DNA of 64,000 bases from Escherichia phage N4. Shown piece after piece: positions 2,940-64,000 of this stretch. The notes below the pieces were generated by a model, which saw nothing but the letters and a program-made list of their open reading frames with translations, was not told the origin of the DNA and searched no databases. Numbering within the stretch: the stretch's first letter is position 1; the number at the start of each line of letters is the position of its first letter. A program made the translations under genes and the position numbers. The stretch lies in the sequence record NC_008720.1; one strand, given 5' to 3'.

Positions 2940-2945
2940 CTAAGC

Positions 2946-2976
2946 AAACCCACCATTACGGTGGGTTTATTTTTTG
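2946..2976 (+). terminator. Rho-independent terminator
   Basis: AAACCCACC-attac-GGTGGGTTT followed by ATTTTTT. Confidence 0.6.
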
Positions 2977-3001
2977 AAGTTATCTAACACCGGGTATTCC
3001 T

Positions 3002-6880: not shown

Positions 6881-6955
6881 GGTGTTTACAGTAATGGGGT
6901 TATATAGTAGCCCCATTTATGGAAATTCCTTTCTCCATTGCTTAGTCCCAACTAT

Positions 6956-6978
6956 GCCCACTTTATGTGGGCTTTTTT
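6956..6978 (+). terminator. Rho-independent terminator
   Basis: GCCCAC-tttat-GTGGGC followed by TTTTTT. Confidence 0.6.
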
Positions 6979-6993
6979 AATTAGAGACTATGT

Positions 6994-14761: not shown

Positions 14762-14765
14762 AAGA

Positions 14766-14788
14766 GCCGCCCATATAGGGCGGTTTTT
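14766..14788 (+). terminator. Rho-independent terminator
   Basis: CCGCCC-atata-GGGCGG followed by TTTTT. Confidence 0.6.
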
Positions 14789-14803
14789 GTATCTGGAGAA
14801 CTC

Positions 14804-60463: not shown

Positions 60464-62056
60464 TCACACGATATATGAAGAGAGTGGGTTAACACTTCCA
60501 GTATCATCACCATCATCCCACAATGGGTCACCTGATGTATTAACTGGAACCATACCTGCTTGTGGTTTCCACGGGTTCAGGTAGCCAAGCATTGAAATGG
60601 TATCAATACAGTCATCCTTACCTTTAAGACCATTGATAGTGGCTAAACGAATTTGCCCCATAAAGAGTGTCATGATTGGGCTATCTTTCATCTCAGCAGG
60701 AAAATACATCTTACCAGCTTTGAACCAGGGAACCACGAGGTTAAACCTTGATAGCTTACTGGTTACAGGATGAATACCCGGTTGGCCTCCACGACTGGAT
60801 GCAAAGTTAAAGAATACATTACGGTTAAGCATTTCCTTCTGAAGAAGAGAAATAAAACCACCTTGCTGTCCAGTAGTTTCTACACCAACTTGTTGTGGTT
60901 GGTATTCCTGAACCAGACGGAATAAGTCATCAAAGTTCTTATCCATAGTTTGACGGCAAGCAATACCATCTACCCAGAACCAGTCACCGTTAGAACCATA
61001 TGCCCATACTGATATTACAGAGTAGTCAGATACCTGCTTCTCACTAGTAGCAAAGTCAGTAGTGATATAAAAGTTATAACAAGAACGCAGACGTAATAGC
61101 TGTGTACGGGAATACCATTTAATCTCTGAATCCTGAATCAAACGCTCATCTTCAGAACTGATACGTAACATCAATTCCTGATAGAAGGATGCCAGCTTAC
61201 CTGTCTTCAATGCCATCTGGTATTGGTCATTGATGTAGTCATAAGAGAAACGGTCTTCCCAAGCACCTTGAAATTCTTCTCGCGTACAGGGGAATTTCTC
61301 GCATACAGGCCATACGTTGACATCCCATGCACCAGATTCAACTGCTTCAATAAGAATATCTTCCTTATTAAAGGGAGTACCATTAAAGATTACCTTACGT
61401 CTTGTTGGGTCAAGAGCATGGTTCACGCCCTTATATACTGTGTCTTTAATAGCTTCCATTGATGTGCGTGAGCGAGCATCATCATCACTAACTAAGTCAT
61501 CCAGTACGCAAAGAACGGGACGTTTACCAAAAATCTTAGTACCACGAAGACCTGTCTTAGCACCAAACATCTTCACACCAAGACGGTGACCTTCAGCATT
61601 TACAAACTCAAGGTAGTTATCCGTGAAGGTAGCTTTAGGAATCCATTGTTGCAGAAATGGTGAATTGTTGTATCGAAACTCAATGTTCTTACGGGCAGAC
61701 TTAACACCGTTATCCATAGAGTCAGATACATAAATCATTCCCTCTACTTTACCCAAGCTAGGTAGATGCCCAAACACTGCTAAGAACAAAGTAAAGTATT
61801 CCATGAACAAAGTTGTCTTTGCTGCGCCACGGAAACATAAGTTAGCAATGTACTGGTTCTTACTGGTTATCTTATCCAGCATCTTTAAGTGAACAGGAGG
61901 GGTTTTGTTTGATTCCCCCTCCTTACCATTAACCAGCTTAATAAAGTTAGCAAAGGTCAGTGCAAACTCGGTTGGTATATACGTAGGGGTATTCAGAACG
62001 GAATAGTCCACTTGGTCTAGCCATTCATCCAACTCCTGTTTAATTAGTTCAGACAT
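60464..62056 (-). CDS. Terminase large subunit
   Basis: Track ORF 60464-62098; start moved to ATG 62056 (SD GAGGA 7 nt upstream; ATGTCTGA overlap with the upstream stop). Walker A-like CFRGAAKTT (about nt 61810-61845); 530 aa. Confidence 0.8.
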   Translation of the reverse strand: MSELIKQELDEWLDQVDYSVLNTPTYIPTEFALTFANFIKLVNGKEGESNKTPPVHLKMLDKITSKNQYIANLCFRGAAKTTLFMEYFTLFLAVFGHLPSLGKVEGMIYVSDSMDNGVKSARKNIEFRYNNSPFLQQWIPKATFTDNYLEFVNAEGHRLGVKMFGAKTGLRGTKIFGKRPVLCVLDDLVSDDDARSRTSMEAIKDTVYKGVNHALDPTRRKVIFNGTPFNKEDILIEAVESGAWDVNVWPVCEKFPCTREEFQGAWEDRFSYDYINDQYQMALKTGKLASFYQELMLRISSEDERLIQDSEIKWYSRTQLLRLRSCYNFYITTDFATSEKQVSDYSVISVWAYGSNGDWFWVDGIACRQTMDKNFDDLFRLVQEYQPQQVGVETTGQQGGFISLLQKEMLNRNVFFNFASSRGGQPGIHPVTSKLSRFNLVVPWFKAGKMYFPAEMKDSPIMTLFMGQIRLATINGLKGKDDCIDTISMLGYLNPWKPQAGMVPVNTSGDPLWDDGDDTGSVNPLSSYIV

Positions 62057-62741
62057 CAATAATATCCTCGTCTTCTCGAACCAGTGTGGAACCTGCAATT
62101 ACTTTAGTAGGTGTACCAGCTTCAATAGCTGCTTTCTGAGCTTCAGCCAACTGGGTTAGTGTGTTCTTAAGTTCAGTCAATCCAGAATTTTCTCTCAAAT
62201 CCAGATTGATATTAGTAACAGCATCCTTCGGTTTCTGGAGGTGAGTAAGGATAGAGTTGGCAGCATCACACTGTACCTTCTCACTGGTAGCATTCTTCAT
62301 GAGCCATGCCTGATGGTTCAATGCTTCCTGAAACAAATCCTGATTAACAATCCATACTGGAATCAATGATTGTTCCATAATGAGGTTTACTAACTTACCT
62401 CTATGGTAAGCAGACACATAAGCAGAGATGTCCTTCTCACTGGTTCCCCTTGCTACTAATTCAGCTTGTCTGTTGGGGAATGTTTTGAAGTAAGCATCTT
62501 TATTGCTATACCCCATGTGTTTGTAAGTAACATATTGAACAGCATTAAGATAATCCTGGGTCTTAAATTTCCCATCCTTCATCACCCCAGCATAAGTCAC
62601 AAAGTTATTTCTAATTTGCTCTGCTGCTGTCTGGTCTTGGGTCACATTGTTAATCATGTCTACCAGTTGGTCAGTAACACTGCTTTTAAACTGGGGAGGC
62701 AATGCAGAAACAATGTCTTTCTTAGTCAGTAGTGTGCTCAT
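62049..62741 (-). CDS. First late-operon gene; possible terminase small subunit (230 aa)
   Basis: ATG 62741 with SD AGGAAG; directly upstream of and coupled to the large terminase gene. Function inferred from position only. Confidence 0.4.
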   Translation of the reverse strand: MSTLLTKKDIVSALPPQFKSSVTDQLVDMINNVTQDQTAAEQIRNNFVTYAGVMKDGKFKTQDYLNAVQYVTYKHMGYSNKDAYFKTFPNRQAELVARGTSEKDISAYVSAYHRGKLVNLIMEQSLIPVWIVNQDLFQEALNHQAWLMKNATSEKVQCDAANSILTHLQKPKDAVTNINLDLRENSGLTELKNTLTQLAEAQKAAIEAGTPTKVIAGSTLVREDEDIIDV

Positions 62742-62868
62742 AGTCTTCCTACAAATTATCTAGAGTGAAGAGGATTCTTTTCTTGGGGTTAGCACCCCTT
62801 GCAGAAACCTATACATAGATTTAGACTTTAGACTTTCTTTAGTCTCCTTACAATAGTAAGACAGAGAC

Positions 62869-63210
62869 ATGGGGAGCCTATTGCCCAAAGGAACCAGTAA
62901 CATGAGACTATTCTATAGTTTTGACGGTAATGACCAATGGAATGAGATAGACTTCAGTAAGATAGGTGGAGCTATCCCAGTTGGAGGGGCTATACCAGGT
63001 GACCATATCTTATGTCACGATGAGGAGTCTTTCCATTACATCTCAGGCATGATGTTAATCAATAACGTCACTGGATTTACTGTCCATAAACCTGCACCAG
63101 TGCGTGTCATTACCAAGCCTATCGAGGGTCTTGCATTCTTTACAAGAATACCTCAAAGTATCTCTATCAAACGACAGCGTGACGCCATCGAGATAACCGT
63201 GGTTGCTTGA
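62869..63210 (+). CDS. Hypothetical protein (113 aa)
   Basis: ATG 62869 on the opposite strand from the late operon (divergent intergenic region 62742-62868); weak RBS. Confidence 0.4.
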   Translation: MGSLLPKGTSNMRLFYSFDGNDQWNEIDFSKIGGAIPVGGAIPGDHILCHDEESFHYISGMMLINNVTGFTVHKPAPVRVITKPIEGLAFFTRIPQSISIKRQRDAIEITVVA

Positions 63211-63373
63211 TAAGCCATTGCCCGCCCAGGAGTTGGTGGCGGGAAACAGGGAACTGTTTGAATAACCACTTCAGCTACATTCACCCATCTCCAAGACGCC
63301 TTTGTTATCTGCCATTGGGTGATGAGTAGTATCAGAGAGAACTGATTTAACAAACACACTCGGTATAGGAATT

Positions 63374-63396
63374 GGGAGCCAAATGGCTCCCTTTTT
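63374..63396 (+). terminator. Rho-independent terminator
   Basis: GGGAGCC-aaat-GGCTCCC followed by TTTTTCTTTT. Confidence 0.55.
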
Positions 63397-63420
63397 CTTT
63401 TATGAACCAAGGAGTTCTAT

Positions 63421-63786
63421 ATGAATATTCGTCCTAATGAAATCTATGGTATCAACCTAGAATACACTACAAACAAACCTGCTCTATTTCACTGTGGTTC
63501 CACCAATCTATTCCATGCTATGTGTGGTAATACCAAACCTCTTTACTTACCCGAATCGGATGATACCCATGCTCTACTAGGTAACTGGTTCTTAGAAGGT
63601 AAAGACATTAGTACCATTCTTCTTGAACCAAGGAAGAAAGTAGCAATACCTACTAATGCATGGAATAACGAAGTCATTTACTTCCTAGCACCAAAAGGCT
63701 TTGAACCAGTGATAGAACAGAATCACTTTAATCATGCAGTTACTTTCTACTTCAGAGAGACTTCAAAGATACCTGCTTATAAATAA
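63421..63786 (+). CDS. Hypothetical protein (121 aa)
   Basis: Strong SD AAGGAG before ATG 63421. Confidence 0.5.
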   Translation: MNIRPNEIYGINLEYTTNKPALFHCGSTNLFHAMCGNTKPLYLPESDDTHALLGNWFLEGKDISTILLEPRKKVAIPTNAWNNEVIYFLAPKGFEPVIEQNHFNHAVTFYFRETSKIPAYK

Positions 63787-64000
63787 GGAAAGCTATGTGG
63801 TATATAACAGTTAAAGGTTTATCCGAACCAGTGATGATAGATAGCCTGGCCTTCGTAGAAGTAGGTCATCCTATTCTTATAGAAGGTAAGTTGTATGAAG
63901 TTGTTAGTATTTATAAGAGATAAATAGGAAGTCTATTAGATAGATACCCTATAATTTTTTCTTAGTGAAAATAGTCATAGTTACTTGTGAGTTCAGTATT

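Follow-up and report, generated by a model that had tools for sequence, protein, structure and literature searches.

The intergenic region between gp69 and gp70

We analysed the right-hand 64 kb of coliphage N4 (NC_008720.1; 64,000 nucleotides, here called the window, along which all positions are counted) and focused on the intergenic region between the minus-strand gene gp69 and the plus-strand gene gp70. N4 is a model for phages that use three RNA polymerases in turn. [quoted passage not shown] The redirection of host polymerase to weak late promoters by this single-stranded DNA-binding protein (SSB) has been described only in outline. The region studied here carries a conserved element with promoter-like hexamers on both strands and a bulged hairpin. 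The genes around the element and the signals of gp70 are as follows.

62049-62741, minus strand: gp69, from the open reading frame (ORF) list, matching phrog_2109, with homologues 54-86% identical to N4
62902-63210, plus strand: gp70, 102 aa, phrog_7213, function unknown
62887-62893, plus strand: AAAGGAA, Shine-Dalgarno sequence of gp70, read from the sequence and aligning with AAAGGAG in the G7C group
63374-63401, plus strand: intrinsic terminator at the end of the gp70 unit, called by the terminator scan and annotated at the same place in relatives

Positions 61800-64000 are 98.7% identical to Escherichia phage OLB145, in a match that reaches the end of the OLB145 genome, and the sequence surrounding the element is identical to the 70,153-bp IMG/VR record 641201066. 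gp69 (phrog_2109), labelled small terminase in some records, is the leading gene of the N4 leftward late operon, and the large terminase gene gp68 lies further along the same block. On the other side, a terminator just 3' of gp70 is annotated at the matching place in Jura, SPSP, JWAlpha and PhAPEC7. Because a strong terminator directly follows gp70 in several relatives, gp70 forms a one-gene unit in many genera.

The recorded gp70 protein has 102 aa and begins at ATG 62902, in agreement with the near-identical Jura and SPSP records, and its homologues align starting at the Met of this codon (MRLFY). A preliminary description of the region had placed it between the first late gene and a plus-strand gene; its gap of 127 nt was counted to the first ATG of the longest ORF (62869) and not to the gp70 start; the real gap is 62742-62901, or 160 nt. 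The 33 nt from 62869 up to 62902 are part of the conserved non-coding element. We also considered an upstream small ORF or an extended gp70 (from ATG 62869 or TTG 62881). Such a frame is present in N4, KP8 and JWAlpha only, is stopped or frame-shifted in inbricus, phiAxp-3 and Axy10, and conserves no peptide, and the candidate was rejected. A word-based protein search with gp70 matched N4 itself only. As a separate observation, gp70 of the G7C group (L023 1977-1989; L025, phage ECBP1, 1977) probably begins at a TTG six bases past AAGGAG (MRIYMRV...); the ECBP1 gene is annotated from this TTG, and the G7C record begins four codons later.

Conservation and distribution of the element

To locate related sequences, we searched with 2.2 kb around the region by megablast and found a 75-nt match (62821-62895) at 92% identity in Pseudomonas phage inbricus and Achromobacter phage Axy13. 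Both belong to another subfamily, and no other part of the query matched them. A sensitive search added the Klebsiella KP8 group, JWAlpha/JWDelta, the phiAxp-3 group and the Axy10 group, whose copies of the stretch are 78-86% identical to that of N4. Counting N4, it is conserved across six genera, with hosts that include E. coli, Klebsiella, Pseudomonas and Achromobacter. The gp70 proteins of these phages are 26-41% identical, far below the adjoining non-coding stretch. The G7C group, Moo19 and several metagenomic lineages carry diverged versions of the element. In every relative the conserved stretch occupies the same slot, with the head of the leftward operon on one side and a plus-strand gene on the other. 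The best-conserved part of the region, 62821-62895, runs on into the supposed coding start of gp70, which the preliminary description had overlooked.

The 5' end of this stretch is an invariant 11-nt box. We found the box in 33 of 80 viral contigs bearing gp69 and in all contigs with a gp70 homologue (21/21). Another 12 contigs have the box without gp70, which ties the element to the operon head and not to gp70. The box heads the leftward operon whatever its first gene is; N4 has gp69 in this position, whereas the Achromobacter phages and contig L041 have an extra gene. A metagenome scan gained no further lineage.

Two contigs show unusual arrangements. In L041 (4930-5215), about 285 nt without a convincing ORF separate the element from a weak gp70-like ORF. 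At the operon head of L110 (reverse strand), the box is inverted within the palindrome TAGACT-AAGCGC-AGTCTA, which may be a rearranged symmetric core.

A predicted two-way promoter in the invariant box

The box contains promoter-like hexamers on both strands, each with a partner on its outer side:

62799-62804, plus strand: TTGCAG, -35 hexamer of the predicted rightward promoter R1, with its TTG at -22 to -20 from the box start
62821-62831, either strand: TTAGACTTTAG, the invariant 11-nt box that holds the shared predicted -10 region, with TTA[G/C]ACTTTAG as its form over all lineages, present once in the window
62822-62827, plus strand: TAGACT, -10 hexamer of R1, TAnACT across lineages, predicted start near 62834
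62825-62830, minus strand: TAAAGT, -10 hexamer of L1, the predicted leftward (late) promoter, which would start near 62818
62848-62853, minus strand: TTGTAA, -35 hexamer of L1, TTACAA on the plus strand, within the 5' arm and loop of the hairpin described below (hairpin B)

We lined up 18 lineage variants ungapped, with the box as anchor, and recorded the conservation of each position. The three bases of the R1 TTG (-22, -21 and -20) are kept in 17, 13 and 15 variants, and their flanks are unconserved. The L1 TTG, read on the plus strand as C+30, A+31 and A+32, is kept in 17, 13 and 16. Outside the box the two TTGs stand as isolated peaks, symmetric about its middle. The distance from TTG to TAsACT is exactly 17 bp in 13 of the 18 variants for R1, and the L1 TTG lies at exactly 17 bp in 11. 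When counted over independent contexts that cannot be aligned with each other, TTG is found at the exact 17 bp in 6 of 11 for R1 (binomial tail about 6e-9) and in 7 of 13 for L1 (about 4e-10). The two -10 hexamers, TAGACT on the plus and TAAAGT on the minus strand, overlap by 3 bp within the box.

The variation of the rightward -10 hexamer follows the same pattern. In TAnACT the bases T1, A2 and T6 are fixed and the third position alone varies (G, C, T or A; TATACT in L088 and L135), which is how a -10 hexamer would be expected to vary. In L041 and L127 hairpin B does not include the leftward TTG, which indicates that this TTG is conserved for its own sake. Elsewhere in the N4 window the box, GGGRNNCCTATTG and TTGNAA-17-TAAAGT recur at chance level only.

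Taken together, these data are consistent with shared control of two divergent units by a pseudo-symmetric, sigma-70-type two-way promoter core, joined by a leader hairpin of gp70. We give this explanation about an even chance. The analysis shows how these sequences are conserved and spaced and, as reported below, how they covary; from this we infer that RNA polymerase uses them, where and when transcription would start, how the two directions would compete and what the hairpin would do. Specifically, R1 (TTGCAG-17-TAGACT) would start near 62834 and drive the one-gene gp70 unit up to the terminator at 63374. L1 (TTGTAA-17-TAAAGT) would start near 62818 and serve as the first late promoter, for gp69, the terminase gene gp68 and the genes beyond; it would be served by host RNA polymerase with N4SSB, as N4 late promoters are. 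Because the two -10 hexamers overlap, a single polymerase orientation could be accommodated at a time, and a gain in one direction would lower the other. In E. coli, a class of two-way promoters that share one -10 region has been described; polymerase bound there in one orientation excludes the other, and activators tip the balance between the directions (PMC12825309).

The preliminary description had expected the late promoter in this region. The site is indeed a plausible one for the first late, leftward promoter, with the sigma-70-like TTGTAA-17-TAAAGT and with its TTG and -10 conserved at fixed spacing. That description missed that the same box can also be read as a rightward promoter, and it missed the covarying bulged hairpin at 62842-62868. 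Footprinting with the phage SSB, which it had proposed, would be a weak test, because the single-stranded DNA-binding activity of N4SSB is dispensable for late activation (review PMC4496689).

Several points weigh against the two-way promoter. The matches to consensus are weak (R1, 3/6 at -35 and 4/6 at -10; L1, 4/6 and 4/6). The promoter scan called neither R1 nor L1 but a third arrangement, TTTAGA-16-TACAAT (62827-62854). The leftward -35 is absent in the G7C group, which has ATGAAC there, and the rightward TTG is absent in L055, L079, L080 and L086. The predicted starts are about 16 bp apart, against described common spacings of 18, 10 and 23 bp. Eleven invariant nucleotides over phages of four host genera exceed what a sigma-70 -10 region usually requires, and two further conserved boxes, TWTAG and CCTATTG, are left unaccounted for. 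In the LUZ7/LIT1 phages, the right-end plus-strand genes are reached by middle-phase transcripts that pass through the late region (PMC9163698), so R1 may not be the source of gp70 RNA. Our literature search found no transcriptome study of N4.

The arrangement called by the scan was itself examined as a candidate and rejected. Of the 18 variants, 7 retain its -11 A (+29) and 8 its -7 T (+33), and C+30, which is conserved best at this place, corresponds to the G in the leftward TTG.

Hairpin B, a probable leader of gp70

Directly downstream of the predicted rightward start, the plus strand can fold into a bulged hairpin:

62842-62868, plus strand: hairpin B, GTCTC-CTTAC-AATA-GTAAG-aca-GAGAC (lower stem, top stem, 4-nt loop, top stem, 3-nt 3' bulge, lower stem), from folding and covariation
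62871-62876, plus strand: purine run GGGGAG, which can lengthen hairpin B, from the minimum free energy structures of N4 and inbricus

In this extension, TTCTTTA (62835-62841) pairs with TGGGGAG through four G.U pairs in N4 and inbricus. The shape of hairpin B is constant over the lineages, with a lower stem, a top stem, a small loop and a 3' bulge of 2-3 nt, and the stem sequence changes:

N4: lower stem GTCTC/GAGAC, top stem CTTAC/GTAAG
L029: lower stem GTCAT/ATGTC, top stem CATAC/GTATG
G7C: lower stem TTCAT/ATGTT, top stem GATAC/GTATG
Axy10: lower stem as in N4, top stem CCTT/AAGG

We counted covariation on a trimmed alignment, which mended the misaligned G7C rows. In the alignment, 86.5% of cells pair, compared with 73% in shuffles, and both sides have changed in 4 of the 10 pairs. 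The covariation score was 0.311, compared with 0.105 in shuffles, none of which (0/500) attained 0.311. Controls in which the structure was slid along the alignment were poor, save a slide of +2 (50% of cells pair, score 0.244). The covariation support is moderate, coming from about five independent lineages and from a structure derived from the same sequences. All wobble pairs (in the lower stem of KP8, in the top stem of JWAlpha and two in L041) are G.U on the plus strand only. Since they work on this strand only, a single-stranded form of the plus strand is implied. The plus strand also folds better than the minus strand in most lineages.

This suggests that hairpin B is probably part of the gp70 mRNA leader, and a rightward RNA from near 62834 is the simplest candidate for it. 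Such a transcript would open with the long bulged hairpin (62835-62876, core 62842-62868), which may act as a 5' leader structure for stability, for translation control, or for both.

The same evidence bears on a different explanation, in which the element would primarily be a structured cis-acting RNA of the rightward transcript and the promoter hexamers would be secondary or incidental. Hairpin B and the conserved linker GGGGAG-CCUAUUG, in some lineages with a second hairpin, would bind a conserved protein, an RNA or a small ligand and thereby govern how the downstream gene is translated or how stable its RNA is. This might work through a pseudoknot in which the AAUAG loop pairs with CUAUU beside the ribosome-binding site. 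The covarying stems fit this proposal, as do the loop, bulge and linker, which hold their sequence, the plus-strand G.U pairs with the better folding of that strand, and the conservation of the element, much higher than that of the downstream gene. AAUAG complements the invariant CUAUU, and in the subfamily Enquatrovirinae CUAUU lies right against the Shine-Dalgarno sequence; in six lineages a second hairpin of unrelated sequence follows right after CCTATTG. However, the pseudoknot shows no covariation, both of its sides are nearly invariant, and it is broken in inbricus (AACAG) and Axy10. The 3' box is wholly absent in L055/L056, the next recognisable gene is about 285 nt off in L041, and in the Rothmandenesvirinae the real ribosome-binding site lies 20-45 nt further on. 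A covariance-model search of 62742-62901 against Rfam 15 gave no match even at E values up to 10. RNAalifold on a plain MAFFT alignment, with the G7C rows misaligned, gave no consensus structure, and fold z-scores were modest (-3.0 in N4, about -0.4 in G7C). Nor does a structured RNA account for the symmetric TTGs at 17 bp. We consider this explanation unlikely.

A related proposal is that 62835-62895 is an undescribed structured RNA motif of N4-like phages, made up of the bulged hairpin, the conserved linker and an optional second hairpin, that sets expression where the late operon borders on the right-end genes, or else a plus-strand DNA hairpin that takes part in SSB-dependent late activation. 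As an RNA, it would act through a bound factor or through the loop-linker pseudoknot; as DNA, it would echo the early hairpin promoters of N4. We regard this proposal as unlikely.

Unexplained boxes and further alternatives

Two short conserved sequences accompany the invariant box:

62838-62842, plus strand: TWTAG repeat (TTTAG in N4), 11 bp past the CTTTAG of the box, with positions +17 to +21 kept in 14, 11, 16, 16 and 17 of the 18 variants
62877-62883, plus strand: 3' box CCTATTG, of which CCTATT is invariant, followed by a lineage-specific hairpin in six lineages

CCTATTG is complementary to the loop AAUAG of hairpin B and to the ATAG of TWTAG. The centre of CCTATT lies at +58.5, +66.5 or +68.5 from the box start depending on the lineage, a shift of about one helical turn. 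Because TWTAG, CCTATTG and the invariance of 11 nt are left unexplained by the promoter, we retained the structured RNA, an operator and, less probably, a promoter of the phage RNA polymerase II (RNAPII) as alternatives.

In the operator alternative, the repeats CTTTAG (62826-62831), TTTAG (62838-62842) and AATAG (62852-62856) and the inverted CTATT (62878-62882) would bind a phage protein on the -10 region and govern both directions, which is close to the idea of the preliminary description. The repeats are conserved and lie 11 bp apart, one helical turn; the shift of the CCTATT centre by about one turn agrees with this, and so does a box invariance greater than a -10 region needs. The helical-phase argument, however, consists of three values. 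The palindrome and the second tandem copy of the preliminary description, reported in the next section, are also unconserved. We give an operator little weight.

Alternatively, the box and TWTAG could form a promoter of the T7-like RNAPII of the phage (gp15/gp16) with a start at G62842, and gp70 would be a middle gene. The start would then coincide with the first base of hairpin B. The N4 RNAPII promoter is short and AT-rich, extending from -7 to +2, and the right-end plus-strand genes of LUZ7 are middle-phase. We also take GTTACACTTTAG of the G7C group to resemble the SP6 promoter core GTGACACTATAG, and TWTAG presumably resembles the TATAG at -4 to +1 of T7-type promoters. In contrast, the box and the box with TWTAG are single-copy in the 64 kb, other matches being at chance level, where middle promoters should recur. 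The mapped N4 RNAPII starts lie in the left half of the genome, and a T7-type promoter has no place for symmetric TTGs at 17 bp. This origin of the element is very unlikely.

As a last possibility, the element could serve replication or packaging as a unique DNA site beside the terminase genes, such as an origin or a pac-like site. The element is present once per genome, adjoins gp69/gp68 and has phased repeats and a hairpin. But the element does not keep a constant distance to the genome end and terminal repeat, being about 1.1 kb away for N4, 2.4 kb for JWAlpha and 3.4 kb for KP8, and the compensatory changes with strand-specific G.U pairs point to a single strand and not to recognition of the duplex. 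The literature search gave no support for such a site, which we consider highly improbable.

Repeats and the GC-rich hairpin

The preliminary description had drawn attention to three repeats, and we found all of them: the tandem TAGACTT TAGACTT at 62822-62835, the palindrome AGACT-ttcttt-AGTCT at 62830-62845 (5-nt arms, 6-nt spacer) and the hairpin GGGGT-tagc-ACCCC at 62785-62798. Taken singly, none exceeds chance. Shuffled sequences have perfect 2x7 tandems at about 5 positions and the window has them at 3 places; inverted repeats with the arm and spacer lengths of the palindrome number 127 in the window and 73 in shuffles, and GC-rich 5-bp hairpins 28 and 13.

Conservation of these repeats among relatives is divided. 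The first TAGACT copy belongs to the box that is invariant across genera. The second copy is present in N4, the KP8 group and contig L051; L041 has a copy out of register, and other lineages have TAGCCT, TAGTCT or TAGTCA at this position. The palindrome is disrupted in inbricus (AGCCT/AGTCT) and in KP8 (AGACT/AGGCT). As neither the second tandem copy nor the palindrome of N4 is conserved, the proposal that they form a regulatory operator is unsupported.

62785-62798, plus strand: GC hairpin GGGGT-TAGC-ACCCC, adjoining the rightward -35 and about 20-33 nt into the predicted leftward transcript

The GC hairpin is retained, with a variable loop, in the Enquatrovirinae only. Its relatives include GGGG-TGAGATA-CCCC in G7C and GGTT-GAAA-GACC in KP8, and it is also found in Moo19, L029 and L051. 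It lacks a T-run on either strand, and the terminator scan did not call it as an intrinsic terminator.

Other features of the window

A T-tract lies immediately before the GC hairpin at the late operon head, and the two together (62774-62798) are retained in the Enquatrovirinae only:

62774-62784, plus strand: T-tract ATTCTTTTCTT, which with the following GGGGTT is a late-operon-head motif in most gp69-bearing Schitoviridae contigs

The T-tract followed by GGGTT (N4 ATTCTTTTCTTGGGGTT, 62774-62790) keeps one orientation in these contigs, among them L082, L092, L095, L100, L106, L116 and L118, and also occurs in contigs without the 5' box. In L092, L095, L100 and L106 the motif is a hairpin loop, as in GTCCGG-TTTCTCTGGGTTC-CCGGAC. 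N4 has a second exact copy, TTTCTTGGGGT, at 1830-1840, between two plus-strand ORFs of the middle region. In five gaps of this region (522-572, 1446-1514, 2940-3001, 6940-6993 and 14762-14803) we found terminator hairpins whose T-run continues into TTTTTAGTA or a similar sequence; TTTTTAGTA itself is exact at 557 and 1485. Middle promoters may overlap terminators there.

We also considered a tRNA gene in the gp69-gp70 region and rejected it. ARAGORN gave four tRNAs, all elsewhere in the window, in a cluster at 26298-26977 (Asn-GTT, Ser-TGA, Thr-TGT and Pro-TGG). The viral contigs L016, L018 and L019, which match the CAGAG..CCTATTG pattern by chance, have in common a conserved non-coding stretch unrelated to N4, with a terminator at its end and then sequence resembling a tRNA start.

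Implications and comparison with known systems

Read in this way, the element belongs to known kinds of signal and stands out among them by its unusually high conservation. A two-way promoter and a structured leader are both familiar, and the novelty is modest. The analysis moves the apparent start of gp70 to ATG 62902 and brings out a conserved hairpin, the probable leader, together with two short boxes of invariant sequence. A near-identical predicted promoter region in phages of E. coli, Klebsiella, Pseudomonas and Achromobacter is a short, defined and testable target. If the proposal is true, overlapping -10 hexamers with symmetric -35 hexamers would mean that late activation and expression of the right-end gene compete for one polymerase site.

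Like the hairpin promoters of the N4 virion RNA polymerase (vRNAP), hairpin B can form in one DNA strand, and its plus strand is the template for leftward transcription. The vRNAP promoters are found at the left genome end and have a 5-7 bp stem and a 3-nt loop with a central purine, whereas hairpin B has a 10-bp stem, a bulge and a loop of 4-7 nt. Neither its loop (AATA in N4, 4-7 nt in relatives) nor that of the GC hairpin (TAGC, 4-8 nt) is of the vRNAP type. Stem-loops at the 5' end stabilise bacterial and phage mRNAs, such as the ompA leader and the T7 late leaders. Hairpin B resembles these as a stable hairpin near a predicted transcript start and upstream of a ribosome-binding site; in contrast to them, its loop, bulge and adjacent linker are conserved in sequence, which a simple stabiliser would not need.

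The LUZ7/LIT1-type phages follow the same three-polymerase programme, and their late promoters, which are sigma-70-like, lie mostly on the structural-gene strand. They differ from N4 as read here in that middle-phase transcripts cover their right-end genes, and the matches of our searches included no gp70 homologue or copy of the element from them. L1 is alike to the N4 late promoters in its leftward direction, its place at the head of the late genes and its weak match to the sigma-70 consensus; at those promoters N4SSB activates the host sigma-70 polymerase (Cho, Choi and Rothman-Denes 1995, cited in PMC4496689).

The closest parallel to the two-way promoter core is found in the bidirectional sigma-70 promoters of E. 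coli (Warman, Grainger and colleagues; PMC12825309). There, too, -10 hexamers of opposite strands overlap in one short AT-rich stretch, the flanking -35 hexamers set the strength of each direction and one polymerase orientation is possible at a time. The N4 region, as read from its sequence and conservation, differs in the distance between its predicted starts (about 16 bp, not 18, 10 or 23), in a -10 region that is invariant over 11 nt, and in that one of its two directions is expected to depend on the phage SSB.
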